DNA of 64,000 nt from an uncultured Actinomycetes bacterium (GCA_963731255.1 CAVSUO010000008.1:304090-368089); one strand, 5' to 3'; positions 8,562 through 64,000 are shown, numbered from the stretch's first letter. The notes: generated by a model from the sequence alone, not told the origin. A program made the numbers and translations.

Positions 8562-9943
8562 CCGAGCGCGTGTCGTTCGATCTCAGCGCGCCGCGGCGCA
8601 TCCATCTGGTCGGCATCGGCGGCGCCGGCATGAGCGCCATCGCGACGGTGCTGTCGGCCATGGGCCACACCGGTCACCGGCAGCGACCTCAGGGCGTCGC
8701 TCACGCTCGATCGTCTCGGGGCCGCCGGGGTGCAGGTGTCGGTCGGTCACGGGCCGAGAACCTGGGGAGCGCCGACGCCGTCGCCGTCTCGACGGCGGTG
8801 CCCCGGTCGAACCCCGAGGTCGCCGCGGCACGCGAGCGCGGGCATCCCGGTGCTGCGCCGGGCCGAGATCCTGGCCGCCATCGTCGCCACCCGGCGCACC
8901 GTCGCGGTCGCCGGCACCCACGGCAAGACGACGACCTCGCTCGATGCTCGCCCTCGTCCTGGTCGAGGCCGGACTGCGACCGTCGTTCATCGTCGGCGGC
9001 GACCTCAACGAGGTCGGTACCGGGGCGGTCTGGGACGACGGGGAATGGCTGGCGGTCGAAGCCGACGAGAGCGACGGCACGTTCCTGCAGCTCGCGCCCG
9101 AGGTGGTGCTCGTCACCAACGTCGAGCCCGATCACCTCGAGCACTACGGTTCGTTCGAGTCCCTCGTCGGGGCGTTCGAGTCGTTTCTGACCGAGGCGCC
9201 CGGCCCGAGGGTCGTCTGCGCCGACGATCCTGTCGCTGCCAGGCTGGGCGCCCAGGTGGGTGCGATCAGCTACGGCATGTCGCGCTCGTCGACCTATCGG
9301 ATGATCGACGTGGAGAGCCGCCGGAGCAACACGACCTTCTCGCTCGAGCACGAGGGCCGGCGCATCGGTCGGCTCGAGCTGCCCGTACCCGGTCTGCACA
9401 ACGCCCCCAACGCGCCGGGGCGGTCGTGACGGGGTTGGCGCTCGGTGCGGACATGGCTGCGGCTCAGCGGGCGCTCGCCCGCTTCGCCGGCGTGGCTCGC
9501 CGGTTCCAGTTCCGGGGTGAACAGGGAGGGGTGAGCTTCGTCGACGACTACGCCCACCTGCCCGGCGAGGTGCTGGCGACCCTCGGCAGCGGCGCGGTCT
9601 GGAGGCTGGCGTCGGATCGTCTGCGTGTTCCAGCCCCACCGGTACTCGCGTACGGCGACGCTGTGGCGGGACTTCGCCGACGCCTTCGAGGGAGCCGACG
9701 TCGTGGTCGTCACCGACGTGTACCCGGCCGGCGAGCGGCCCCGGCCCGGCGTGTCGGGCCAGCTCGTGGTCCAGGCCGTGCGGGACGCCCATCCCCGCCA
9801 GCAGGTGAAGTACGTGCCTGGTCGGGCGGCTCTCATGTCCGAGCTGCGGGGAACGCTCGCGGCCGGGGGACCTCTGCCTGACCCTCGGTGCCGGCGATCT
9901 CACCTCCCTACCCGACGAGTTGCTGGTCGACGCCGCGTGGTAG
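8558..9943 (+). pseudogene. murC: UDP-MurNAc-L-alanine ligase MurC, frame-disrupted
   Basis: HLVGIGGAGMSAIA (ORF 8354), VAGTHGKTTT (ORF 8730), EADESDGTFL..NVEPDHLEHYG (ORF 7984), VDDYAHLPGEV (ORF 8730) and FQPHRYSRT (ORF 9625). TAG at 9941-9943. Confidence 0.85.
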
Positions 9944-10890
9944 CCAGGGCGGCCGGAGGGCGCGGAGCGGTCGAGCGCGGAGCCGTCGAGCAGGCGGCAG
10001 CGGTGCTCGGGGCCCGTGCACGGCGTGACCGGCCCATCGGTCCGCTCACGACGTACCGGGTGGGAGGACGGGCGGCGCTTGCAGTGGAGATCGCAAGTAG
10101 CGACGACCTCCGCGTGGCGCGCGACGCCGTCAGCGCCAGCGGCGTGCCGGTGCTGGTCGTGGGCAAGGGCTCCAACCTCCTCGTCGCCGACGCCGGCTTT
10201 CCCGGGCTCGTCGTCCAGCTGGGCGACGCGTTCTCCACGATCGAGATGGACGGGACCCGGGTTCGGGCCGGTGCCGCCGTGGGTCTCCCGGTGCTGGCCC
10301 GACGATCGGCCCACGTCGGGCTGACCGGGCTCGAATGGGCAGTGGGCGTCCCGGGATCGGTCGGCGGGGCGGTGCGCATGAACGCCGGCGGGCACGGCTC
10401 GGAGACGAGCGAGCGACTCGAGCGGTGCTGCCTCGTCGACCTGCGTAGCGGGGACGAGGAGGTCGCAGGCGTCGACCGGCTGGACTACTCGTACCGCCAC
10501 TCGAGTGTGACGAGCCACCACGTCGTCCTCTGGGCCGACTTCGCCGTGTCCACCGGCGACGTGGAGGCGGCCGAGGCGGAGATCGCCGAGATCGTCCGGT
10601 GGCGTCGCCAGCACCAGCCGGGGGGCCAGAACGCCGGCTCGGTGTTCACGAACCCGCCCGGTGACTCCGCGGGCCGGCTCATCGAGACCGCCGGCCTCAA
10701 GGGCCACCGCATCGGCTCGGCGTGCGTGTCGACCAAGCACGCCAACTTCTTCCAAGCGGACCCCGGTGGCTCGGCCGACGACGTTCGGGCCCTGGTCGAC
10801 GAGGTCCGTCGCCTGGTGGCCGAGCGCGTCGGCGTGACGCTTCGAACCGAGCTCAAGCTCATCGGGTTCGAGACCTCGACCTCAACCTGA
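9937..10890 (+). CDS. murB: UDP-N-acetylenolpyruvoylglucosamine reductase MurB
   Basis: The 3' part of ORF 9625..10890 is intact: PLTTYRVGG, VLVVGKGSNLL, GSVGGAVRMNAGGHG, GSVFTNP. GTG 9937 overlaps the murC stop. Confidence 0.85.
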   Translation: MVARAAGGRGAVERGAVEQAAAVLGARARRDRPIGPLTTYRVGGRAALAVEIASSDDLRVARDAVSASGVPVLVVGKGSNLLVADAGFPGLVVQLGDAFSTIEMDGTRVRAGAAVGLPVLARRSAHVGLTGLEWAVGVPGSVGGAVRMNAGGHGSETSERLERCCLVDLRSGDEEVAGVDRLDYSYRHSSVTSHHVVLWADFAVSTGDVEAAEAEIAEIVRWRRQHQPGGQNAGSVFTNPPGDSAGRLIETAGLKGHRIGSACVSTKHANFFQADPGGSADDVRALVDEVRRLVAERVGVTLRTELKLIGFETSTST

Positions 10891-10993
10891 GCCTCAACTT
10901 CACCTTTACCGTGGACCTCCAGTTGACGGTGAGCTCGGCCCGCCGCCAGGTGGGATCCCCGCCATGGGAGGAACGACGTGAAAGGGTGAGGGC

Positions 10994-11793
10994 GTGACCG
11001 GGCTGCGTTCCAGACCTGTCAGCTCGTCAGCGCCCCCCCGAATGGACCCCCGCATCCGCCAGCGCCGGTCCGCCGTCAGGCGGCGGGAGGGCCAGCGCCG
11101 GCTCAGAGTCGTGCTCGCCGTGGTGGGATGCACCGTGGTGACGGCGGCGACCCTCACCCTCCTGTACTCCCCGCTGCTCAGCGTCCGCCAGGTCAACGTG
11201 TCAGGCGCCCGTCACACGAGTCGTCGAGGCGATGCTTCGTGCTACCGGGCTCGATGGTCACCCGCTCATGATGCGTGTCGACACCCGCCGGCTGCAGCAG
11301 CGCCTGGACGCGCTGCCCTGGGTGGCCACGGCCACCGTGACCCGCGACTGGCCGTCGACGGTCGGGATCTCGGTCGCGCGAGCGCGTCCCGGCAGCCGTG
11401 GTGACCACGGCAAACGGCGAGTGGGCGGTCGCCGACGACACCGGACGGGTGCTGCAGCGCTCGACCGGCGCCCCACCCGCGCTTCCCGCGTTCCGCGCCG
11501 TCGAGAAGCTCCCGGCGCCGGGGTCACAGTTGCCCGCCTCGTCGGGTCCAGCCCTGCGTGTGCTCGGCGCACTCCGTGGGCGCCTCATCACCCAGGTCCT
11601 CTCCGTCGACGTGCGTCCTGACGGAGAGGTCGCCCTCACCGTGTCGTCCGGCGTCGTCGTCCAACTGGGCGACGACACCCAGCTCGATCGAAAGCTGGCG
11701 GCGACGCAGACCATGTTGTCCCAGGTGAGACCGCCTGGCGTGCAGACGATCGACGTGAGGGTGCCAGAGGACCCGGCCCTCGTGCCCCGATGA
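10994..11793 (+). pseudogene. ftsQ: Cell division protein FtsQ (POTRA domain), two frameshifts at about 11215 and 11390
   Basis: Basic N-terminus plus a TM helix (ORF 10994), then the POTRA-like segment LDALPWVATATVTRDWPSTV (ORF 11232), then the C-terminal domain (ORF 11398). Sits between murB and ftsZ. Confidence 0.75.
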
Positions 11794-50113: not shown

Positions 50114-51691
<1,578 letters not shown>

Positions 51692-51779
51692 GGCCTGGCA
51701 CGGTAGTCGGCGGTGCCGGTTCCCTCGGAGCGCGGGCGAACTAGGTTGGGGGTTCCCTAGTGCATAGGGGGGGACATTC

Positions 51780-53675
51780 GTGATCCAGCATCACTCCAAC
51801 CCACCGAAGCCCGGCCCGCCGACGGACCCGCCGAAGCGCCCGGTGCCACCACCGCCTCCTCGCTGGCGGATCTGGTTCCTCGTGGTCGGCATCGTCGCCA
51901 CCGTCGGCCTGCTCTTCATACCGGCCATGGGCAGCGCCCCACCGGTCTCCAACCTCAACTATTCGACCTTCGTCGACAAGGTCAACGCCAACCAGGTGTC
52001 CACGGCCACCATCGACCCCAACGGCAAGGTCACCGGCCAGTTGAAGGGGAATGCCGGCCAGCACTACAGCTCCCAGATACCGCTGGCTCTCGGCAACAAC
52101 CAGCTGGCGCCCACCCTCCAGGCCCACGGCGTGGCCATCACGGGTGTGGGCCCAAGCAGCTCGGTGCTGCCCACGATCCTGTCCTTCCTGCCGTTCGTCC
52201 TCTTCCTCGGCCTGTTCCTGCTCCTGGGTCGGCGCTCGGCCCGGGCGGCGGGCGGGATCATGGGGATCGGCAGCTCCCGCGCCAAGCTCTACGACGAGGA
52301 GCGACCTCCGACCAGGTTCGCCGACGTGGCCGGCTACGAAGGGGTCAAGCAGGAGGTGAGCGAGGTCGTCGACTTCCTCACCCACCCCGACCGCTACTCC
52401 CGCGCCGGCGCCATCGGACCCAGGGGGGTGCTCATGGTCGGGCCCCCCGGTACGGGCAAGACGCTCCTGGCCCGGGCGGTGGCGGGGGAGGCCGAGGTGC
52501 CGTTCTTCGCCATCACCGGCTCGAGCTTTGTCGAGCTGTTCGTGGGCGTGGGGGCGTCCCGGGTCCGGGACCTGTTCGCCACCGCTCGCAAGCGGGCGCC
52601 ATCGATCATCTTCATCGACGAGATCGACGCCATCGGCGGCAAGCGTGGAGCCGCGCTGTTCGCGTCCAACGACGAGCGGGAGCAGACCCTGAACCAGCTC
52701 CTCGCCGAGATGGACGGGTTCGACCCGGCCACCGGGGTGGTCGTCATGGCCGCCACCAACCGCCCCGAGACCCTCGATCCCGCCCTGCTGCGCCCCGGCC
52801 GCTTCGACCGGACGGTCGAGATCCCCCTGCCCAACCGGGCCGAGCGGGCCAAGATCCTGGCCGTGCACACCAAGGGGCGGAGGCTGGCGCCCGATGTCGA
52901 CCTCGGCGTCGTGGCCGGGCTGACACCCGGGTTCTCCGGTGCGGACCTCGCCAATCTGGTCAACGAGGCCGCCATCGTGGCCGTGCGGGCCGACCGGGAG
53001 GTGATCGCCGCCGCCGACTTCTCCGAGGCCCGCGATCGAATCCTGCTCGGCCGCCGCGACGCGTCCAACGCCCTGCTCCCCGACGAGAAGCGCTCGGTCG
53101 CGGTGCACGAGGGTGGGCACGCCCTGGTGGCCGTGTTGTCCCCCCATGCCGACCCCGTCGCCAAGGTCACGATCCTTCCGTCGGGCATGGCCCTCGGGGT
53201 CACCGAGCAGCTCCCGGTCGACGAGCGCCACCTCTATCCCGAGAGCTACCTGCTCGATTCGCTGGCCGTCCGCCTCGGTGGCCGGGCTGGCGAGCTGCTC
53301 GTGCTGGGCGAGGCCTCGAGTGGGGCGAGCAACGACCTCGCCGGCGCCACCGAGCTGGCGACCCGGATGATCCGCGACTTCGGCATGAGCGATCGGCTGG
53401 GGCCCGTCGGCTTCTCCTCGCCGGCTCCCAACTACCTCGGCCCCGACGGTCGAGGCCGGCCGTACGCAGAGGGCACCCAACAGCTGATCGACGAGGAGGT
53501 GGCCCGGCTACTGCGCCAGGCCGAGCAGCGGGCGACCCGGCTGCTGACCGAGCACCGCTCTGCGCTCGACCGGGTGGTCGACCTGCTCCTCGAACGAGAG
53601 ACGATCGACGGGCGCGACGTCGAGGCCGCCGTCGCCACACCGGGACGTCAGCCAGCTCGAGCCGGCACCGGCTGA
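51780..53675 (+). CDS. ftsH: ATP-dependent zinc metalloprotease FtsH
   Basis: N-terminal TM helices, [11 protein letters not shown] (Walker A), IIFIDEID (Walker B) and HEGGHA (zinc site). Confidence 0.95.
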
Positions 53676-53965
53676 CGAGCCGTATCGGCGGGCGCCGAGC
53701 CGGCTCCGTCGTCATCGGCACCGCGGTCGTCGCGAACGTCGTCGTCCGCGACAGCATCGTCTGCCAGCTCGTCGTCGGGCTCATCCTCGGGCTCGCTGCT
53801 GAGGTCGGTCCACCCCGCCCCCGGCTCCGCGCTCCACTGGACCCGGCGGTGTTTCGGGCCGCCGCTCACGGTGAGCCGACCGCACGAGCACGTCCGCACG
53901 TCCCAGGGATGGCTGGAGTCAATGATGTCCCCGCAGACGTCGCAGCGGGCCCGCGACCCGGTCAC
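53648..53965 (-). CDS. Small zinc-ribbon-like protein with an acidic tail, translationally coupled to clpP
   Basis: CDVCG...CSCG cysteine pairs, then an Asp/Glu-rich C-terminus. GTG 53965 overlaps the clpP stop (GTGA). The 3' end overlaps the convergent ftsH by 28 nt. Confidence 0.5.
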   Translation of the reverse strand: MTGSRARCDVCGDIIDSSHPWDVRTCSCGRLTVSGGPKHRRVQWSAEPGAGWTDLSSEPEDEPDDELADDAVADDDVRDDRGADDDGAGSAPADTARQPVPARAG

Positions 53966-54591
53966 GACGCCGCGGCCGCTGCCAGCGCGGCCACGCCCCG
54001 CCGGGGGGCGATGATGTCGTCGACGATGCCGTAGGCCAGAGCTTCCTCCGCCGTCATGTAGAAGTCGCGGTCGATGTCGCGTTCGACCCGCTCGATCGGC
54101 TGATGGGTGTGGTGGGCGAGGATCTGGGCCATGCGCCTGGTGGTCGCCAGCGCCTCCTGGAGCTGTATCTCCATGTCGCGTGGCGCTCCACGGGCCCCGC
54201 CCGATCCCTGGTGGATCATGACCTTGGAGCTCGGTAGGGCCGAGCGCTTGCCGGCGGCGCCGCCGGCGAGGATCATGGCCGCCGCCGACATGCCCATGCC
54301 GACGCAGATGGTGGCCACGTCGCAGTGGACGTGCTGCATCACGTCGTAGATGGCCATCCCCGCGTACGCGAGGCCGCCGGGCGAGTTGATGTACAGGTAG
54401 ATGTCCTTGTCGGGGTTCTCGGCGTCGAGGTAGAGGATCTCGGCGATCAGGAGGTTGGCGATCTGGTCGTCGACCTCCTGACCGAGGAAGACGATCCGTT
54501 CGCGCAGAAGGAGCGAGTAGATGTCGAATGCCCGCTCGCCGCGCGGCCCGCTGTCGAGCACCGTGGGGATGAGGGAGTGATAGGACGCCAT
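53962..54591 (-). CDS. clpP: ClpP family serine protease subunit (triad positions retained)
   Basis: YINSPGG, GMGMSAAAMIL (Ser aligned with the ClpP nucleophile), MIHQ (His) and ERDIDRDFY (Asp). ATG 54591 is preferred; the ORF track start is 54648. Confidence 0.8.
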   Translation of the reverse strand: MASYHSLIPTVLDSGPRGERAFDIYSLLLRERIVFLGQEVDDQIANLLIAEILYLDAENPDKDIYLYINSPGGLAYAGMAIYDVMQHVHCDVATICVGMGMSAAAMILAGGAAGKRSALPSSKVMIHQGSGGARGAPRDMEIQLQEALATTRRMAQILAHHTHQPIERVERDIDRDFYMTAEEALAYGIVDDIIAPRRGVAALAAAAAS

Positions 54592-54716
54592 GGCCACCTC
54601 GCTTCCGTCGTGTTCCAGCGCCTGACCGCCGGCGTCTATACCATACATGCGATATTACCAACGAGTTATCATCGTTGACATGAGCGGACCTCGTCCGGAC
54701 GTGTCGCAGTGCCCCG

Positions 54717-55055
54717 GTGGCCGGTTCTCGACAGATGGGTGAGCGCAGGCACGATCGCTACCTGCCCGGCTTCGGCGACGTGGCCCGGCGCCGACAGGCG
54801 CTGGCCGAGGCCCTGGTGGCCCGGCGCGTGGCGGTCGGCCTCTCCCAGACCGAGGTTGCGGCCCGCATGGGAACGTCGCAGTCGGCCGTCGCCCGCCTCG
54901 AGTCGGGCCAGGGCGACGTGCGCCTCTCGAGCCTCGAGCGCTATGCCGCCGCCGTCGACCAGGTCATCGACTGGCGACTGGGTGGGCCTGAGGACGCGGA
55001 AGCCGGGCCGGCGACCGGGCTGGCTCCTCCCGCCCGCGGGGACGACGTCGGATGA
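54717..55055 (+). CDS. XRE family helix-turn-helix regulator
   Basis: LSQTEVAARMGTSQSAVARLESGQ. The stop overlaps the ATG of the next gene (ATGA). The alternative start is ATG 54735. Confidence 0.8.
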   Translation: MAGSRQMGERRHDRYLPGFGDVARRRQALAEALVARRVAVGLSQTEVAARMGTSQSAVARLESGQGDVRLSSLERYAAAVDQVIDWRLGGPEDAEAGPATGLAPPARGDDVG

Positions 55056-55603
55056 CCGGGATCTTTCCGTCCGGGGACCCCCGGCTGTCGGCCGAGCGGG
55101 CGTTGCTCGACCGGAGGATCATCCTGCTCAGCGGCAGGATCGACCATCAGCGGGCGAGCGACGCGGCGGCCACGATGATGACCCTGGACGCCCTCGGCGA
55201 CGATCCGGTCGAGCTGCGGCTGAATGCCGAGTCCGACTCGCTCGACGTCGCCTTCGCCCTCATCGACACCATCGACGTGCTCGGCGTGCACGTCACCGCG
55301 ACGGTCGCCAGCACGGTGGGCGGGACCATGGCGGGTGTGCTCGCCGTCTGCAGTCACCGTCGGATCGGAGCCCTCGGCCGGATCCACCTCCGCGAGCCGA
55401 CCGCCGACTTCTCGGGTCCGGCGACCGATCTGCAGCGGCGGGCCACCGCTCTGGAGGCCCGCGTGCTGCTGTACGTCCGCCGCCTGGCGGAGGCGACCCG
55501 CCAGCCCTTCGAGCACGTCGAGGCGGACCTGCGCCTCGGGCGGCACCTCTCGGCCGAGACCGCCCTCGGCTACGGCATCGTCGACGAGATCGTCGGACCG
55601 TAG
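55052..55603 (+). CDS. Divergent ClpP-like protein (ClpR-like; oxyanion and Asp positions appear substituted)
   Basis: By manual alignment to ClpP, YINSPGG corresponds to RLNAESDS, the Ser and His positions are plausibly kept (VASTVGG, RIHLREP), and the catalytic Asp position reads Gly (DLRLGRHLS). GYGIVDEIV is the typical ClpP C-terminal motif. Confidence 0.65.
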   Translation: MTGIFPSGDPRLSAERALLDRRIILLSGRIDHQRASDAAATMMTLDALGDDPVELRLNAESDSLDVAFALIDTIDVLGVHVTATVASTVGGTMAGVLAVCSHRRIGALGRIHLREPTADFSGPATDLQRRATALEARVLLYVRRLAEATRQPFEHVEADLRLGRHLSAETALGYGIVDEIVGP

Positions 55604-55643
55604 CCCCCCCGGACGAGGGACCCCCGGGGGCCCCGGGCGGCGC

Positions 55644-55865
55644 CTAGTCCCGGGGGCGCAGGTCGATGCGCAGCGTGAGGATGCCGTCCTCCAGCTTCCC
55701 CTCGGCGTCGCCGAGCATGGCGAAGTCCATGAAGTCACGCTGGGCCTGTTCGGCGAAGCGCCGACGCTCGGGGCCCTCGACGGGCGGGAGGCCCCGATTT
55801 CGCACCGCCACGGCCCGCTGCCGGAAACGCTCTATCATGGCTTGAACATCAAGCTCTTCGGGCAT
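55644..55865 (-). CDS. Small hypothetical protein (73 aa)
   Basis: Read from ATG 55865 (MPEELDVQAMIERF...). The longer ORF track start at 55958 is less likely. Confidence 0.4.
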   Translation of the reverse strand: MPEELDVQAMIERFRQRAVAVRNRGLPPVEGPERRRFAEQAQRDFMDFAMLGDAEGKLEDGILTLRIDLRPRD

Positions 55866-55971
55866 CGCGGCAGACCCTAGCCAGTTTCGTGGGCGGTTCC
55901 GTAGGAGCTTGGTCGCGGCGACGGCGGGGTACACTGTCGCCACAGCACCTGTCGACACCTGGGAGCGGCTC

Positions 55972-56157
55972 GTGAAGAAGGGACGTCACCGGCGCTTCGA
56001 AGAGGCACGCACGTTGAAGCTCGGACAGCAGGGTCAAACCACGGTGCGTGACGCGGACGGCGCCGCAGAGCAGTGCCCGGAGTGCGGAGCCGAGGCCGGG
56101 AAGGGACACGCGTCCTGGTGCCTGGCCGAGGCCGAGGAGCTCGACGAGGAAGCCTGA
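55972..56157 (+). CDS. Small basic/acidic protein with a CPECG...HASWC motif (61 aa)
   Basis: GTG 55972 lies 6 nt after GGGAG. The N-terminus KKGRHRRFEEAR is basic and the C-terminus is acidic. Confidence 0.4.
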   Translation: MKKGRHRRFEEARTLKLGQQGQTTVRDADGAAEQCPECGAEAGKGHASWCLAEAEELDEEA

Positions 56158-56200
56158 CGCCGCCGGTCCGACAGTGCCGCGGCGCCGGCTCGGCCGATGC

Positions 56201-56966
56201 TCAGCGGCGGCGAACGGCGGGGTGGGGCACCGGTACAGCCGGGTAGGCGCTGCCGTTGAAGTAGCGGTCGGTGAGGTAGCGGCTCACCCGATCGTAGGGA
56301 TCCCGCCCGACCAGGGCGATGAGCTCGTCGCGCAGGGTGCGGAACACCGGCTCCGAGCCGACGAACGCGTCCGGGGCCTCGGTGCACCACCAGTGGAACT
56401 CGGCGCCTCCTGCTCCCCAGTGACGGCGCTCCCACTGCCCGACGGTCGTGGTCACGTGACCGTCGTCGTCGGCGTCGTCCTCGAGTCGCAGCGGCAACTG
56501 CCAGCACACGTTGGGCTTCAGGTCCATCGGAGACCGGTGCTGCTCCACGGCGGCGAGGTGCAGCGCACAGCCGGCGCCCCCCGGGAACCCCGGACCGGTT
56601 CAAGAAGACGCAGGCCCCGTCGACGATCCTCGTGGCCAGGTCGCCCGACTTTGTGCGCTTGAGCGGACCAGACCGCGCTCGATGGGCGAGCTGCCACTGG
56701 TCAGGTCCGAGCGTGGCCGCCGCCCGCTCCACGCGCGCCGCGTCCTCGTCGTCAGTGAAGTGGGCGCCGTACGAGCAGCACCCCTGGCCGAGCTCGGGGG
56801 CGGCCTCGGTGAGCACGCCCTGGCACCCCCGTCCGAAGATGCAGGTCCACGAGCTCAGCAGGAAGGTGACGTCGAAGACCCACGTCCGGTCCTCGTCGGG
56901 ATCCTCGAAGCTCACCCACTCGTGCAGGCCGTCCGGATACTGGTCCTTGCGTCTCGACCGCGACAT
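56201..56966 (-). pseudogene. Conserved Cys-rich protein (YkgJ / CxxCxxCC-like), one frameshift at about 56580
   Basis: WTCIFGRGCQG, GCCSYGAHF and DGACVFLN are in ORF 56034..57044. KPNVCWQLPLRLE is in ORF 56201..56548. Confidence 0.55.
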
Positions 56967-57113
56967 CACGGCCACGGTAGTCGTGACGTCCGCCTGTCGG
57001 CGGGATCCGCGTCGATTTCTCCGCCTCGTCGACGTGCTCGCCACTTTCGACGCAATGTGGAACCGGAGGACGACACGAGCGCGCCGGGGCCGATGGGGAA
57101 CCCCTCCGGTCCG

Positions 57114-58567
57114 TCAGTCGGACATCTGGCCCAGCGGTCCGAGCTGCCCGGCCGTCGGCTCGGCGCAGCAGAACCAGGGCTCGGTCAGGCGAGGCCGTCC
57201 TTCCCCGGCTCCTGCGGCGACCAGCACCGGCGCGCGCATCCGTCGTCGGAGTCGGCACCCATCGCCTCGGCGGTGGCCCGTCGGATCCGCAGGTAGGTGG
57301 TCCCGGCGGCCTCACCGGTCGCCGCCGCCTCCTCGGCGATCGAGGCCAGCCGGGCCTGCAGGGCGTCCACCCGGGCGTCAGGCGACAGCCACGCGTAGCT
57401 CAGCAGCTCAGGGTCGTAGGGTCCGAGCGGACAGCTGGTCGTCGCCGAGCAGGAGCGAGCCCTGGGGCACGAGCAGCCTGATGCTGTACTGGACCGGGTC
57501 GACGTTGGGGACGAGATCGTGGCGGGCGACGAAGTCCACGATGTCGGCCACGTCCTGCAGCGACGTCCACGGGCGTGAAGGGCAGCCAGGACGGGCGCGA
57601 TCTCGATCCCGTGGGCCCGCAGGATCTCCACCGCCTCGGCGGCCTGGGCGGCGGTGTGGCCCTTGTCCAGCCGGGCGAGGATGTCGTCGTTCAGGCTCTC
57701 GAACGCCGACACCACGAACAGGCACCCGGCCGCCGCCATCTCCCTCCAGATCCCGCGGTGGGCGAGGATGTGCTCCACCTTCGTCGTGCAGTCGAAGGTC
57801 AGCTGCGGGAAGCGCTCGTGGACCGCACGCACGACCCTGAGCGAATGATGTGGTCCGTTGAGGAAGTCGGGGTCCCCGAAGGTGATGTGGCGGGCGCCAC
57901 TGGCCACCAGGCCGGCGACGTCGGCCACGACGACGTCCTCGCCGACGAGCCGGGTGCGGCCGTCGTAGACGACGGGTACGGGGCAGTGTCGACAGCGGTG
58001 GGCGCAGCCGTGGCTGGCCTCCACGTAGCCGACCGTGCGTTCCTCGCCCCCGACGGCGAGGCGGGCGTAGCTGCTCGAGGGGAGGGAGAAGGTCGCGGGC
58101 GGGCGGGGAGAACCGGCCTCGCCCCAGCTCGAGGCTGACCGTCGCCGCCGTTGGCGACAGGCGCGCCGATTGGCCCGTCATCCCCCGCCAGCTGGTTGAC
58201 CCAGTCCACGAGGGCGGGCTCGTACTCCCCGGCGATGGCGCGGTCGGCGAGGCTGGCGACGCTGGGGTCGTCAGCCATCGGCGCGTACAGGCCGTAGAAG
58301 CACAGCGGCAGCTCGGGGCGGCGTCGTCGCACGGCATCGGGCGGCAGTGGCGGCCAGGCGCATGGCCGTGTGCATGGGGACGGAGAAGGCCACCGCCTCG
58401 GCCCAGTCCACGGCCTCGGGCCCGAGCTCGTCCCATCGCTGCACGGACAGGTCCAGACAGCGGGGCTCGTGGCCGGCGCGCGCCAGCGCCGCCGCGGGGG
58501 AGGCGACGTGGAGCGGCTGGTGACCCAGCTCGTAGGTCGACACGAGCAGCACCCGCACACCGCCCAC
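57114..58567 (-). pseudogene. Radical SAM protein of the CUAEP/CCAEP-tail type, frame-disrupted several times
   Basis: N-terminal VRVLLVSTYELGHQP (B12-binding-like) is in ORF 58271..58876. EASHGCAHRCRHCPV (CxxxCxxC) is in ORF 57185..58024. The tail PWFCCAEPTAGQLGPL is readable only in a third frame (CCAEP at 57156-57170, stop at 57114-57116). Confidence 0.7.
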
Positions 58568-58568
58568 G

Positions 58569-59830
58569 CTAACCGTCACCCTCCTCGTCTTCGACGATCG
58601 CGCACCTCGAGCTTGGCCGTGAGCCTGGCGGAGGGTCGCCTCGACCTCCTCGGGCGTGTCGCGCCTTGGCGAACAGGAAGCCGAGGTACCGGTCCCCCTC
58701 GGGGAGCGGACGCACCCTCCGGCCCGGCGCGATGGAGATGTCCAGGCCCGTGATGCCCGGCACCTGTCGGCGCCCGGTCCTGGCCGCCGACGGCCGCCAG
58801 GCGGCCCTCGGCGGCGGATCGGGAGCATCATGACCCCGGCGGCCTGTCGCTCCCGTGCGAGCCCGTCGAGAGGCATGCCGAGGGCATGGGCGCACGATCA
58901 GCTGCTCGAGGCTGACGCCGACCCCGAACGAGAGGGCGCGGGAGCACAGGCCGCCGATGGAGCGGGCCGCCACCTCGATCAGCCACGCCGCTGCTCCGTC
59001 GGTGCGCAGCTCGGCGTGGACCGGGCCTCTCGACCAGTCCCATGGCGGCGCAGGCCTCGGCCGCCGTCCGCTCCACCGCGGCGACAGCGGCCTGCGGCAG
59101 GCGGGACGGCGTGACGTAGATCGTCTCCTCGAAGTAGGGCCCCTCGAGCGGATCCGGCTTGTCGAACACGGCCAGGGTCTCGAGCAGCCCCACCACGGAG
59201 CAGGCCCTCGACGGGCACCTCGGCGCCGGGCACGTAGGCCTCCACGAGGAGCGGCCGGCTGGGGTCCTCACCGGCGTCGGCGAGGATGGCCCGGACCCGG
59301 TCGCCGGCCAGCTTCGCTCCAGCCGCGTCGTCGGCCCTGATGACGCCGCGGCTGGCGGACAGCGACGGTGGGCTTGATCACGCACGGAAAGCCGACCGTC
59401 GCCGGCCACCTCGGCGACATCCTCGTCGACGGCGACGCTGGCGAAGCGGGGCTGGCGGGACGCCGGCCGCCGCCAGGCGTCGCGCATGGCCAGCTTGTCT
59501 CTGGTCGCCATCACCGCCTCCGGCGGGTTGTGGGGCAGGCCCAGGCGGCTCGCGGCCAGGGCCGCGGCCAGCACGCCCTGGTCGTCGACGGCGACGATGC
59601 CGTCGATCCGGCGCCGGCGGGAGCAGGGCCACGATGGCTGCCGGCCGCCGCGTCTGGGCGTCGCAGGTCGATCTGGAGGAACCGGTCCTCCATGGTCGTC
59701 GGCCAGCACCTGCGGGCGCTCCGAGGCCACCACCACCTCGGCGCCCAGCCTGGGCGGCGGCGGCCAGAAAGTCGGCGGCCCGGTAGGTGGCGGTGGGAAG
59801 GATCAGGAGAAGGCGGGCCACGGACCTATC
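58569..59830 (-). pseudogene. ATP-grasp domain protein, heavily frame-disrupted, immediately upstream of the radical SAM gene
   Basis: VARLLLILPTATYRAADFL (ORF 59378..59932), IDGIVAVDDQGVLAAALAASRLGLPHN and DKPDPLEGPYFEETIYVTPS (ORF 58828..59736), and SIGGLCSRALSFGVGVSLEQLIV (ORF 58569..58973). The TAG stop lies 1 nt before the rSAM GTG. Confidence 0.65.
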
Positions 59831-59913
59831 ATGTTCCTGTGCCCATGGCCGGGGTCCACGGCCTGAACGAGACCGACGACATCTCAGGCGAGGGTACCGT
59901 CGGGGGTGAGGAT

Positions 59914-60573
59914 ATGAGCTCGCAGCAGACACCTGAGTTCCAGCCCGTGCTGAAGGTCAGCGACCGGGCTCGCGGCATGGTGCTCGATGTCCGGGCGATC
60001 GGAGACCGACGGGGATCGGCTGGCCCTGTGGCTGGAGGTCAGCGGGGTCGCCGGCTCGAACTACACCTACGACATGTACTTCGAGGCGGCGGCGGACGCC
60101 GGACCCGACGACCTGGTGCAGCACGACGACGAGCTGACGGTCGTCATCCCCGAGGCGAGCGTGGACAAGATCCGCGGCGCCACGCTCGACGTGAGCGGCG
60201 CCGGGGACGATGCGGGCATGGTGATCATCAACCCCAACACCCCGCCCTCCCACGGGCAGCCCGGCCATGGGCGACAGGCCCGCCGGCGGACCTGAGCGGG
60301 GACGTCGCCCAGCGGGTGGTCGCCGTGCTCGACGCCCAGATCAACCCGAGCATCGCCGCCCACGGAGGCCGGGCCGACCTGGTGGCCGTCGAGGACGCGA
60401 CCGCCTACCTCCGGCTGAGCGGCGGGTGCCAGGGATGCGGGCTGGCCAAGGTCACGCTCAGCCAGGGCATCGAGGTGGCGATCACCGACGCCATCCCCGA
60501 GGTGACGTCGGTCGTCGACGTGACCGACCACGCCAGCGGAGACAACCCCTACTACGAGCCGGCCAAGAAATAA
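59914..60573 (+). pseudogene. Nfu/NifU-C-terminal-domain Fe-S scaffold-like protein with a HesB/IscA-like N-terminus, two compensating frameshifts
   Basis: The N- and C-termini are in ORF 59368..60573 (INPSIAAHGGRADLV, SGGCQGCG) and the middle (LALWLEVSGVAGSNYTYDMYF) is in ORF 59987..60295. Confidence 0.7.
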
Positions 60574-60635
60574 GTTAGTACGGGCACGTCGTCGCCCGCA
60601 CAACACGGCCTCGACCGGGGTCCTAGTCTTGACCG

Positions 60636-61825
60636 GTGGTTCTGTCTGTGGCGGTCAGACGCCACCGTCTCATCGTTCTGCTCGGGCTCGTTCTCGCTCT
60701 CCTGTCGGCCGGTCCTGCCGGGGCTCGGTCGGCGGTCGCCGCCGTGCCCCCGCCTGCGCCCGCCGCCGCCCGGCACGCCCCCTCCGGGTACGCCGGGACT
60801 GCCTCCTCCTGCAGGTCCGGCGGCGTGGGTCGTCGTGGACGCCGACACCGGTAACGTCATCAACGCCGCCAACGATCACATCGGGATGCGGCCGGCCAGC
60901 ATCAGCAAGGTGTTGACGGCCATCGTCGCCGTTCAGCACCTGCCCTCGAACAGCGTGGTCCCCGTCAGCCCCGTCGCCCAGGGCACCGAGTCGGTCAATC
61001 TGGGTCTCAAGGTGGGGCAGGTGTGGGCGTTCACCGACATCCTCCACGCCATGCTCATGCTGTCGGCCAACGACGCGGCGCACGGCGCTGGCCGAGCGGG
61101 TGAGCGGCACCCGCGAGGCGTTCGGGGCCGAGATGCAGCGCACGGGCGCCGACCTTCACCTGGTCGACCATCCGGTCCTCCGTGACCCCGCTGGGCTCGA
61201 CGACCAGTTCTCCGTCCAGGGAGGAAACGTCATCTCCGCCTACGACCTGGCCATCATCGCCCGGACGGCGTTGGCGATCCCCGATATCCGCCAGATCGTC
61301 GATCTGCCGGAGTACCGGTTCACGGCACCCGACGGGGTGGTCCACGTGATCCGCAACGTCGACCGTGGGCTGGAGCTGTACCCAGGAGCCATCGGCATCA
61401 AGACCGGCTACACCAAGGCGGCCGGGAACACCTTCATGGCGGCGGCGACGCGTGACGGGCGCACGATGGTGGCGGTCGTCCTCCAGTCTCCCGACATCTA
61501 CCGCTCGGCGACTGCGCTCCTCGACCTAGGTTTCGCCACGCCGGTCACCAGGGAGTCGCGGGTCGACCACCTGCCTGCCATCTCGACGCAGGTCCCTGCG
61601 CCGACGGCCACCACCACGCCCAGCTCGGGGACACGCAACGCCCCGGCGGTCTCGCCGCCGCTCGGCCGCACGGCGCGGGACTCCTCGACGGCTGGTTCCG
61701 CGACGTCGTCGTGGCCGTGGCCGCCGTCCTGTTGGTGCTCGCCGCCGTCGTCGTGGCCCTCCGAAGGCGCGGTCGTGCGCCGGCGGCGGAGCCGCTACGG
61801 GTCGTTGGCGACTCGGCGCCACTAA
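60636..61825 (+). pseudogene. D-alanyl-D-alanine carboxypeptidase (peptidase S11, PBP5-like), frame-disrupted
   Basis: Signal peptide (ORF 60636), SxxK ASISK and SxN SAND (ORF 60835), KTG IKTGYT (ORF 61100), and a C-terminal TM anchor in yet another frame (ORF 61711). Confidence 0.75.
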
Positions 61826-61834
61826 CGTTCGGCG

Positions 61835-62450
61835 GTGGCCGCGTTGCTGGTGGGCGCTTGTGCCGCGGGTGGGCTTGGTGCCGGGTCCCTCGTGCGCCTG
61901 GGCCGGCCGTTCACCGAGCTCTCGACTGCCGCCCTGTTCGCGGCCGCTGGCCTCCGGTTCGGCTTCGACGCCGTCCTCCCCGCCTACTGCCTCTTCTTCG
62001 CCGCCCTCGTGGCGGTGGCAGCGCTCGACGTCGAGCACCGCGTGGTCCCCAATCGGGTCCTTCGCCCGGCATTGGTGCTGACGGTCGTGCTGCTCGGCGG
62101 GGCGGCGATCGCCGAGGCGGCCGGTCGCGCTGCGCTCGACTCCGTCGTCGGAGGCCTGGTGGCGTTCGCCGCCCTCGGCCTGGTGCACCTGGTCCAACCC
62201 CGGGGGATGGGCTTCGGCGATGTCCGGCTCGCCGGCTTCATCGGGCTGTACCTGGGCTGGCTCGGCCTTGGCTACGTCGCGACGTGGACTGCTTCTCGGC
62301 TTCCTCCTGGCGGTGGTCGCCGGGGTCGTCCTGATGGTGGTGACCGACAGCGGCCTCATGGCGCGGCTGCCGTTCGCTCCCTTTCTCGGCGCCGGGGCCG
62401 TGCTCGTCGTGCTCTGGGGCGCTCCGCTCACACGCGCCTGGTCGGGCTGA
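61835..62450 (+). pseudogene. Prepilin (type IV leader) peptidase, A24 family, one frameshift at about 62285
   Basis: Polytopic membrane protein. GMGFGDVRLAGFIGLYLGW is in ORF 61835 and LPFAPFLGAGAVL is in ORF 62220. Confidence 0.7.
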
Positions 62451-62498
62451 ACTCCCGAGCCGGCGCTGCGAGAGGGGCCCCCCGGTAGATTGGGTCTC

Positions 62499-63696
62499 GT
62501 GCTGCGCTTCCTCACCGCCGGCGAGTCCCACGGAAAGGCGCTCGTCGTCATCGTCGAGGGGCTGCCGGCCGGGCTGCCGCATCACGGTGGAGGACGTGCA
62601 GGGCGAGCTGGCCCGGCGCCGGCTCGGGTACGGCCGGGGCCCGCGGATGCGCTTCGAGGAGGACGAGGTGACCCTGCTCGGCGGCATCCGCCACGGCCGG
62701 ACCCTCGGCTCGCCCGGTGGCCATCGAGATCGCCAACACCGAGTGGCCGAAGTGGTCGAGGAGATGTCGCCCGCGCCCGGGCGCGCCGCGAGGGTGCTGA
62801 CCCAGCCCCGGCCCGGCCACGCCGACCTGGCCGGGATGCAGAAGTACGGCTTCGACGACGCCCGCGACGTGCTCGAGCGGGCGTCGGCGCGCGAGACGGC
62901 GGCGCGTGTCGCCGCCGGCGCGCTGCGCCAAGGCGCTGCTCGCCCGCCTCGGCGTCGACGGTCCTCAGCCACGTGGTGGCCGCTCGGGCGCGGTCGAGGC
63001 GCGAGTCGGAGCCCGGCCCGAGCCGCGGCGACCTCGCGCGAGTCGACGCCTCGCAGGTGCGGTGCTTCGATCCCGAGGCCGAGGAGGCCATGGTCGCCGA
63101 GGTCAAGGCGGCGGCCAAGGTCGGGCGACTCGCTGGGAGGAGAGGCCGAGGTGCTGGCCTACGGCGTGCCGGTCGGGCTCGGGAGCCACGTGCACTGGGA
63201 CCGCAAGCTCGACGGCCTCCTCGCCCAGGCCTGATGAGCATCCAGGCCGTGAAGGCCGTCGGGATCGGCGACGGCGCCGACCTGGCCGGCCGGCGGGGCT
63301 CGGAGGCCCACGACGCCATCGCCTGGGACGCCGACGCCGGCGACGTACCGGCGCGAGACCACGCGGGCCGGCGGGATCGAGGGCGGCATGTCGACCGGGC
63401 GAGCCTCCTGGTGGCCCGGGTGGCCATGAAGCCGCTGGCCACGCTCAACCGCCCCGTGCTCAAGACGGTCGACGTGGTCGACGAAGGAGGAGACGGTCTC
63501 GTTCAAGGAGCGCACCGACGTCACCGCCGTGCCGGCCATGGGCGTGGTGGCCGAGACGATGGTCGCGCTGACGCTGGCCGGCGAGGCGCTGCGCAAGTTC
63601 GGCGGCGACTCGCTGGCCGAGGTCGTGCGCAACCGCGACGCCTACGTGGCCACCCTGAGGGAGCCGGTGTCGGAGGTCGGCACCCGAGATGGCTGA
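62499..63696 (+). pseudogene. aroC: Chorismate synthase, heavily frame-disrupted
   Basis: VLRFLTAGESHGKALV (ORF 62490), RRRLGYGRG.RM and RPGHADLAG..KYG, SARETAARVAAGA (ORF 62587), with later segments in other frames. The stop overlaps the aroK ATG. Confidence 0.8.
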
Positions 63697-64000
63697 GCAC
63701 ATCTTCATCGTCGGCATGATGGGAGCGGGAAAGACGACGGTCGGACGGCTCCTCGCCGAGCGGCTCGGGTGGCGTCATCTCGACAGCGACGAGCAGGTGG
63801 GACGCGACACCGGGCAGACGGTTCCGGAGATCTTCGCCGACCGTGGCGAGCCTGCGTTCCGGGCCGCTGAGAAGCGCGCGCTCGCCGCCGCCGCCGTCAG
63901 CTGACACGCCGACGGTGGTGTCCGTGGCGGGCGGCGCCGTGCTCGATCCGGACAACCGCCGCGTGCTGCGGCGCAATGGCGCCGTCGTGTGGCTGCGGGC
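63689..64000 (+). pseudogene. aroK: Shikimate kinase; frameshift at about 63900, and truncated by the window end
   Basis: IFIVGMMGAGKTTVGRLLA (P-loop) and DSD. After the ORF stop at 63904 the homologous frame continues (VSVAGGAVLDPDNRR). Confidence 0.8.

Follow-up and report, generated by a model that had tools for sequence, protein, structure and literature searches.

The radical SAM (S-adenosylmethionine) enzyme ArsL of arsinothricin biosynthesis is the only characterised close relative of the gene analysed here, which lies at 57114..58567 on the minus strand of a 64,000-nucleotide stretch of DNA from an uncultured Actinomycetes bacterium (GCA_963731255.1 CAVSUO010000008.1:304090-368089; this whole stretch is referred to as the window). 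ArsL splits SAM at S-C(gamma) into methylthioadenosine (MTA) and an aminocarboxypropyl species, and the Fe-bound aminocarboxypropyl species is captured by As(III) held on three C-terminal cysteine residues (bioRxiv 10.1101/2024.02.01.577332; 10.64898/2026.04.29.721666). All three cysteines of the ArsL tail, RCCLKC, are required (10.64898/2026.04.29.721666). The diol dehydratase AprD4 and homologues of ArsL belong to a 'B12-like' radical SAM network; they have Rossmann-like domains yet bind no cobalamin (2026 review, PMC12931638). The family of the window gene, that of the CUAEP/CCAEP-tail radical SAM (seleno)proteins, has been described as uncharacterised (bioRxiv 10.1101/2022.07.06.499078), in agreement with the first-pass annotation of the window. 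The comparison presented here indicates with high confidence that the window gene belongs to this family, that its C-terminal tail is hidden by assembly errors, and that it is part of a conserved module with an ATP-grasp gene and an NfuA-like gene.

The longest minus-strand open reading frames (ORFs) of the deposited sequence in the region 57114-59830 are fragments, and pieces in alternating frames join into a B12-like/radical SAM protein and an upstream ATP-grasp protein. The fragment ORF 58024-57185 (minus strand), reading MEASHGCAHRCRHCPVP..., has its stop at 57185-57187. Another frame of this strand ends in ...RPRLTEPWFCCAEPTAGQLGPLGQMSD-stop, with the stop codon TGA at 57116-57114. The tail motif CCAEP, encoded by TGC TGC GCC GAG CCG at 57156..57170 (minus strand), lies in this second frame, 13 residues ahead of the stop. 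The [4Fe-4S]/SAM cluster motif CxxxCxxC, spaced as C-AHR-C-RH-C within SHGCAHRCRHCPVP, is located at 57983..58006 (minus strand). The GCAHRCRHC motif, the stop at 57185, the CCAEP motif in another frame and its TGC TGC codons instead of TGA had all been pointed out in the first-pass annotation, and all of them are seen in the translations.

When the gene is projected onto the frame of L001, a 26-kb metagenome contig that is used as the reference for indel correction, positions 57114..58567 encode a protein of 482 aa and include the stop codon. The corrected protein has no internal stop, is 95.9% identical to P0001 (482 aa), which is its closest database homologue and is encoded on L001, and contains GCAHRCRHC. 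It ends in ...EPWFCCAEPTAGQLGPLGQMSD; removal of the indels thus brings the CCAEP tail into frame, and WFCCAEPT occupies residues 463-470 of 482. It matches the NCBIfam model NF040546 (CUAEP/CCAEP-tail radical SAM (seleno)protein) with 572.2 bits and E = 7.5e-172 over positions 1-467 of 468, above the curated NCBI cut-off of 500 bits, and a crude hand reconstruction already reaches 561.6 bits. A match of this strength over nearly the whole model indicates that the reconstruction is not due to chance. The second tail position of the window copy is TGC (Cys) rather than selenocysteine (Sec), which the definition of the NF040546 family permits. Close homologues number in the thousands, and several of them carry the NCBI name of this family. 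By its sequence the window protein is therefore a functional-looking Cys-Cys version of the NF040546 family, from which nothing distinguishes it at the family level; it is one more member of a catalogued family, its hidden tail being an assembly artefact, and nothing about it is categorically new.

L001 aligns to window positions 50637-64000 with 93.9% nucleotide identity over 13.4 kb. All genes of L001 are intact, and their order is as in the window: aroC, peptidases, NifU, ATP-grasp, radical SAM, Rv0495c-like, clpP and ftsH. The comparison with L001 delimits a patch of small indels at 56201..64000 that hits every gene inside it. Between 56.2 and 64.0 kb, 61 frame-breaking events are found in total, with 52 one-base insertions and 7 one-base deletions, and 37 of the 52 insertions are not beside an identical base; only five frame-breaking events are found between 50.6 and 56.2 kb. 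The broken genes are those for the DUF3109-like protein, the radical SAM protein, the ATP-grasp protein, the NfuA-like protein, a peptidase S11 and a prepilin peptidase, as well as aroC. The radical SAM gene contains eight frame-breaking events (seven one-base insertions and one 2-base deletion), and its CCAEP tail is out of frame because of these eight indels. Of the 17 indels in the ATP-grasp gene, 15 are one-base insertions, one is a one-base deletion and one a three-base insertion, and 16 are frame-breaking. The first-pass annotation was right in describing both genes as riddled with frame breaks. The stop-free frame profile of the window does not delimit the patch at this G+C content.

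The frame breaks are most likely assembly errors, most simply an unpolished stretch of a long-read assembly, as judged from the alignment. It is highly improbable that the locus is decaying and the two genes are true pseudogenes. The deposited sequence does carry 25 indels, 24 of them frame-disrupting, within 2.7 kb, and a truncated 279-aa product is present in NCBI. However, the indel density is equal in every gene from 56.2 kb to the end of the window, including housekeeping genes such as aroC, the region 50.6-56.2 kb is clean, and insertions outnumber deletions 52:7. After correction to the L001 frame all 14 genes checked are free of stops, no nonsense substitution is present, and synonymous differences exceed non-synonymous ones in 13 of the 14 genes, including all genes within the patch. 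In the radical SAM gene, 48 codon differences are synonymous and 19 non-synonymous; in the ATP-grasp gene the counts are 68 and 38. A patch that is biased to insertions and also breaks aroC, together with genes that are stop-free after correction, argues against gene decay, and the pseudogene reading is rejected on this evidence. The truncated product of the ORF at 57185-58024 (minus strand, 279 aa) is the NCBI protein P0137, by which the assembly error has been carried into a public protein database.

The tail was compared across the family. In an alignment of 23 sequences with 32-69% identity, the only invariant cysteines are the three cluster ligands (C188, C192 and C195 of P0001) and the first Cys of the tail, and outside the catalytic core no stretch is more conserved than the tail, which follows a variable linker. 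A scan in which each species was represented by one genome gave 586 relatives; of the best 80, 44 have Cys at the second tail position and 35 have an in-frame TGA (Sec), and one locus is ended by a contig edge. This TGA, present in 35 of the loci L003-L082, precedes the end of the radical SAM gene by about 40-50 nt. After the second tail position the frame runs on as conserved AEPTxxQ(F/L)GxL in every case. An in-frame TGA followed by conserved AEPTxxQFGxL indicates genuine recoding to Sec. Of the 150 listed representatives of 50%-identity clusters, 37 end exactly at ...W[FY]C, an ending that reads as the signature of a miscalled Sec codon. The family name, which refers to an alternation of Cys and Sec, is thereby borne out, and such alternation at the second position points to a chemically active residue. 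Tail variants of other representatives are CCAAP, CCAMP and CCSEP. CU motifs are otherwise reported in heavy-metal and organometallic proteins.

The ATP-grasp gene is located at 58569..59821 (minus strand) and encodes 411 aa after indel correction. It had been drawn to 59830 in the first-pass annotation, but its start is the GTG at 59821. The corrected protein is 90.5% identical to the intact L001 protein and has no internal stop. It matches the Pfam domains ATPgrasp_N (41.3 bits), ATP-grasp_4 (93.4 bits) and LAL_C2 (31.9 bits), all above gathering, and the same architecture is precomputed for 120 ATP-grasp homologues. Among solved structures, the L-amino acid ligase BL00235 (3vot) is closest to it (E = 7.4e-29), and BacD comes next (2e-11). 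The domain architecture is thus shared with the L-amino acid ligases BL00235, BacD, RizA and DdaF, but the window protein reaches none of the curated equivalog models (46 versus 850 bits for BacD, 24 versus 840 bits for DdaF), and it has strongly conserved motifs of its own, among them FDKPDPLxGPxFEET and ARSIGGLCSR. Models of protein-modifying ligases of the RimK/LysX type give 25-30 bits. The window ATP-grasp protein is accordingly classed as a ligase of the L-amino-acid-ligase (LAL) type, and dipeptide formation would be assigned to it by similarity only.

The two genes are tightly joined. The stop codon TAG of the ATP-grasp gene (58571-58569) is followed by a single base (58568) and by the GTG of the radical SAM gene (58567-58565), as the minus strand reads GGT GAC GGT TAG C GTG GGC GGT GTG CGG GTG CTG, and GGAGG is located 12 nt upstream of this GTG. 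The junction (58565..58571) is identical in L001, where the genes are called at 8764-9999 and 10001-11449. Among 51 relatives with the gene order of the window, the ATP-grasp stop is at most 50 nt from the first aligned radical SAM codon in 38, and a stop/start overlap of 4 nt occurs in 12 of the 41 loci where a start codon could be picked. The one-base spacing given in the first-pass annotation is therefore as it said, whereas the co-translation derived from it is better worded as probable translational coupling.

The third gene of the module, which had been seen as a divergent Nfu gene in the first-pass annotation, is located at 59914..60573 (plus strand) and encodes an NfuA-like Fe-S carrier with a degenerate A-type-carrier N-domain and an Nfu domain that contains GGCQGCG. 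NfuA serves radical SAM enzymes, LipA and MiaB among them, as an Fe-S carrier. The window protein matches Pfam NifU with 69.2 bits and the NfuA model TIGR03341 with 91.2 bits over positions 3-190 of 190. It has the two-domain layout of NfuA and the CxxC of its Nfu domain, and it is conserved beside the radical SAM gene, but its score is below the equivalog cut-off of 269 bits, and it is therefore NfuA-like in architecture only.

The neighbourhoods of the 80 loci were examined, and neighbours were counted by tblastn rather than by de novo ORF clustering, because clustering undercounts them when ORF calling at high G+C merges or misses genes. In 58 of the 80 loci an ATP-grasp gene lies no more than 2 kb from the radical SAM gene, such that the ATP-grasp neighbour is conserved with the family. 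Of the 48 loci with flanks of at least 3 kb on both sides, 35 have both the ATP-grasp and the NifU gene, 3 have NifU alone and 10 have neither; 38 of the 48 accordingly have an NfuA-like gene no farther than 3.5 kb from the radical SAM gene. The order of the three genes varies across phyla, and at least four different orders are found. Actinomycetota and most Chloroflexota have NifU (minus), ATP-grasp (plus), radical SAM (plus); Blastocatellia have ATP-grasp, radical SAM, NifU; one Rokubacteria genome has radical SAM, NifU, ATP-grasp; and some Chloroflexota and one Nitrospirae genome have radical SAM followed by ATP-grasp. Adjacency that is kept despite rearrangement speaks for a link in function, not for synteny by inheritance. 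Reciprocal look-ups from ATP-grasp homologues agree with this result: in two of three places the ATP-grasp gene is flanked by NifU and the radical SAM gene on opposite sides, and the third (L084) has NifU, with no radical SAM gene called after the ATP-grasp gene. The NfuA-like/ATP-grasp/radical SAM trio is a module conserved in Actinomycetota, Chloroflexota, Acidobacteriota, Rokubacteria and Nitrospirota. In addition, P0263, a protein of 850 aa that is 34% identical to each half and has the tail variant CCAAP, looks like a natural fusion of ATP-grasp and radical SAM proteins.

No precursor peptide, transporter, regulator or any further gene is conserved with the trio across phyla among the 80 loci, and a scan of 55.5-60.8 kb for riboswitches with Rfam gives two sub-threshold chance hits only. 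A DUF169 gene stands beside NifU in 14 of the 80 loci (cluster c3; Acidimicrobiales and Chloroflexota; for example at 4524-5240 of L084) and may be an accessory of the module or just lineage synteny. Two short contigs, L041 (3 kb; labelled as a Bifidobacterium breve metagenome-assembled genome (MAG); ATP-grasp and radical SAM genes) and L072 (labelled as a Burkholderiales MAG; NifU, ATP-grasp and radical SAM genes), have an actinobacterial-looking module whose proteins are 54-66% identical to those of the window, and these contigs are probably mis-binned. An Acidimicrobiia subclade of about 50% identity (L038, L040, L044, L051-L057, L059, L068, L069 and L071) has neither ATP-grasp nor NifU nearby, and several of its loci have an alpha/beta-hydrolase-like gene upstream and an ABC-2-type transporter gene directly downstream; in this subclade the ligase may be encoded elsewhere, or the functional context may be different.

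The next-best model for the corrected radical SAM protein after NF040546 is the ArsL model NF040542, with 288.8 bits against a cut-off of 450, and other families give at most 45 bits. Conversely, P0253, a true ArsL-family protein with the tail ...RCCIKC that is 34% identical to P0001, gives 516 bits on NF040542 and 340 bits on NF040546. The reciprocal scores indicate that the CUAEP/CCAEP and ArsL families are each other's nearest relatives by a wide margin. The window protein and ArsL have the two-domain architecture and a C-terminal Cys tail in common, with about 34% identity over about 400 residues. Membership of the window protein in the ArsL family itself is rejected, because the score is 288.8 bits and the third conserved tail Cys is absent from both alignment and translation. 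The partners also differ: that of ArsL is ArsM, while those of the window radical SAM protein are the ATP-grasp and Nfu proteins.

Searching solved structures by sequence with the radical SAM protein gives nothing at E <= 0.001, and thus no structure of the ArsL family for comparison. The AlphaFold2 (AF2) model of P0001, which is 96% identical to the window protein, has a predicted local distance difference test score (pLDDT) of 90 and a predicted template modelling score (pTM) of 0.90; the linker 441-452 is disordered (pLDDT <50), and the tail has a pLDDT of about 75. This model matches AprD4 (PDB 6fd2) best, with a template modelling (TM) score of 0.68-0.72, and then TsrM and OxsB, across both domains. 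AprD4 has a Rossmann-like N-domain that is cobalamin-free, but its identity is only 16-17%, it has no Cys-Cys/Sec tail, and it performs canonical 5'-deoxyadenosyl chemistry on an aminoglycoside. The Pfam scores of the radical SAM protein are 56.7 bits for Radical_SAM and 25.8 bits, under the gathering score, for B12-binding. Thus, of the B12-binding-like N-terminus proposed in the first-pass annotation the fold stands, while cobalamin binding is not implied, since the closest relatives ArsL and AprD4 are reported to be cobalamin-free (PMC12931638); 'B12-binding-like' should be read as a description of a Rossmann-like fold only.

A mechanism is proposed tentatively, by analogy with ArsL and at clearly less than even likelihood. 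The radical SAM protein would act like ArsL. Its flexible and conserved tail, Cys-Cys here and Cys-Sec elsewhere, would hold a soft nucleophile, either a chalcogen or a metalloid species, and this nucleophile would receive the 3-amino-3-carboxypropyl group. A 2-amino-4-X-butanoate would result, which the ATP-grasp protein would join to a second amino acid or amine; alternatively, the ATP-grasp protein would make the acceptor first. The NfuA-like protein would load or repair the cluster. The explanation that blends the family identity, the artefact and the module with this ArsL-like mechanism is considered the best overall and falls just on the likely side.

Several observations weigh against this explanation. 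The tail of ArsL has three thiols (CCxxC), whereas that of the window family has two (CC or CU, followed by AEP). No ars or other metalloid gene recurs near the module in L001 or the 80 loci, where the neighbours are NifU, ATP-grasp and housekeeping genes. Sequence cannot prove that the non-canonical SAM cleavage by ArsL is a shared trait. No ATP-grasp gene is nearby in 22 of the 80 loci, mainly from one Acidimicrobiia subclade, indicating that the ligase is encoded elsewhere or dispensable there, and the Nfu gene might be the general Fe-S carrier of the organism. The artefact reading is inferred from comparison with a relative, L001. Finally, a search of the literature on the CUAEP/CCAEP family, NF040546, ArsL homologues and LAL with radical SAM found no functional study of the family and a single sentence on it, which calls it uncharacterised.

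The strongest competitor of the ArsL-like mechanism, itself possible but doubtful, is that a canonical 5'-deoxyadenosyl radical takes a hydrogen atom from a small molecule that the ATP-grasp protein makes or processes, while the tail swings as a redox arm or donates hydrogen atoms, a role comparable to that of GCUG at the C-terminus of thioredoxin reductase or of the C-terminal Cys pair in ribonucleotide reductase. Such chemistry occurs in nearly all PF04055 members, the best structural matches of the AF2 model (AprD4, TsrM and OxsB) are canonical enzymes with a Rossmann-like N-domain, the flexible linker and conserved tail suit a swinging arm, and adjacent Cys-Sec pairs are classic redox centres. 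However, the nearest sequence relative is ArsL and not AprD4 (289 versus 27 bits), and the protein has no invariant Cys other than the three cluster ligands with which the tail could exchange electrons. If the ArsL-like transfer is retained but the acceptor is a macromolecule, the aminocarboxypropyl group would be put on a protein or RNA residue and the ATP-grasp protein would ligate or amidate the new carboxylate. Diphthamide synthesis pairs aminocarboxypropyl transfer with ATP-dependent amidation in this way, and its radical transfer is performed by Dph2. The module is self-contained, with no conserved transporter, regulator or precursor gene, and in Acidimicrobiales it lies amid housekeeping genes (aro genes, clpP, efp), as would suit a macromolecular target. 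This arrangement is nevertheless unlikely, as the ATP-grasp protein has the C-terminal domain of an L-amino-acid ligase, its best matches are ligases of free amino acids, RimK/LysX-type matches reach only 25-30 bits, and there is no candidate target.

The sister-family relation to ArsL would also be accounted for if the window enzyme were isofunctional with ArsL or a close variant of it, organifying arsenic or another metalloid, with the ligase forming a Trojan-horse dipeptide antibiotic as BacD does with anticapsin and RizA with 2-amino-5-phosphono-3-pentenoic acid (APPA). Two vicinal thiols are able to bind As(III) or methyl-As(III), dipeptide antimetabolites are typical of L-amino-acid ligases, and BacD and DdaF are among the weak matches of the window ligase. 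It is quite improbable, however, given the score of 288.8 against 450 bits, the missing third Cys of RCCLKC, the lack of any conserved arsM, ars resistance, exporter or immunity gene nearby, and a very wide distribution beside housekeeping genes that is unlike a specialised antibiotic cluster. Maturation of a ribosomally synthesized and post-translationally modified peptide (RiPP), with a radical SAM maturase and an ATP-grasp protein acting on a precursor peptide, is very improbable and is rejected for want of a precursor. Pairs of radical SAM and ATP-grasp proteins are found in RiPP clusters, but here the intergenic gaps measure just 147 bp and 92 bp, the 80 loci show no small gene that clusters with the module, the ligase is LAL-type rather than microviridin-type, and neither a Cys motif of a SPASM/auxiliary cluster nor a conserved protease or exporter is present. 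Both gaps are open in all frames because the G+C content is 72%, and the small-ORF search of them finds nothing conserved beyond the closest relative, which bears out the first-pass annotation in its statement that no precursor peptide is seen. An ATP-grasp protein of the LAL type without a conserved precursor makes a small-molecule product, or a macromolecule outside the RiPP class, more likely than peptide maturation; peptide or small-molecule modification had been suggested for this gene pair in the first-pass annotation. Overall, the macromolecular, arsenic-specific, RiPP and pseudogene explanations are less likely than both the ArsL-like mechanism and canonical radical chemistry.

The Cys-rich gene downstream of the radical SAM gene is located at 56201..56966 (minus strand) and is DUF3109/Rv0495c-like (Pfam DUF3109, 21.8 bits, under gathering); its orthologue in L001 is precomputed as PF11307. 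The first-pass annotation placed it correctly, but its inclusion with the other genes does not hold, because only 9 of the 80 loci, all with actinobacterial labels, have it within 400 nt on the downstream side of the radical SAM gene. In three more loci a homologue lies about 3.7 kb upstream on the other strand. The Cys-rich gene is probably outside the module and represents lineage-specific synteny only. Upstream of it, the intergenic segment 56967-57050 is near-identical to that of L001 (GTCGAAAGTGGCGAGCACGTCGACGAGGCGGAGAAATCG...), has no Rfam match and may be a promoter or operator. Farther along, two small ORFs at 55972-56157 (61 aa, CPEC...H..C) and 55644-55865 (73 aa) encode proteins that are 100% identical between the window and L001, 6% nucleotide divergence notwithstanding, and have no Pfam hit on record.

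These results bear on annotation, because indel-rich patches in long contigs mask such tails and feed truncated proteins to public databases. What is new is the quantified cross-phylum three-gene module and the sister-family link to ArsL, which together give a testable hypothesis. With thousands of sequences the family is large, its members coming from bacteria of soil, freshwater, the sea and sponges, and its only characterised relative, ArsL, runs one of the rarest reactions of the radical SAM superfamily. If the ArsL-like reading is true, the family could provide a new metabolite and a second radical SAM enzyme that transfers aminocarboxypropyl groups. It is conceivable, though rather doubtful, that the trio constitutes a widespread undescribed pathway, in which a second ArsL-type enzyme moves the aminocarboxypropyl group of SAM onto a species borne by its Cys-Cys/Cys-Sec tail and so makes a carbon-heteroatom bond such as C-S, C-Se or C-metalloid, and the ligase converts the product to a dipeptide-like metabolite. 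Such a metabolite would be shared by Acidimicrobiia, Thermoleophilia, Chloroflexota and Acidobacteriota.

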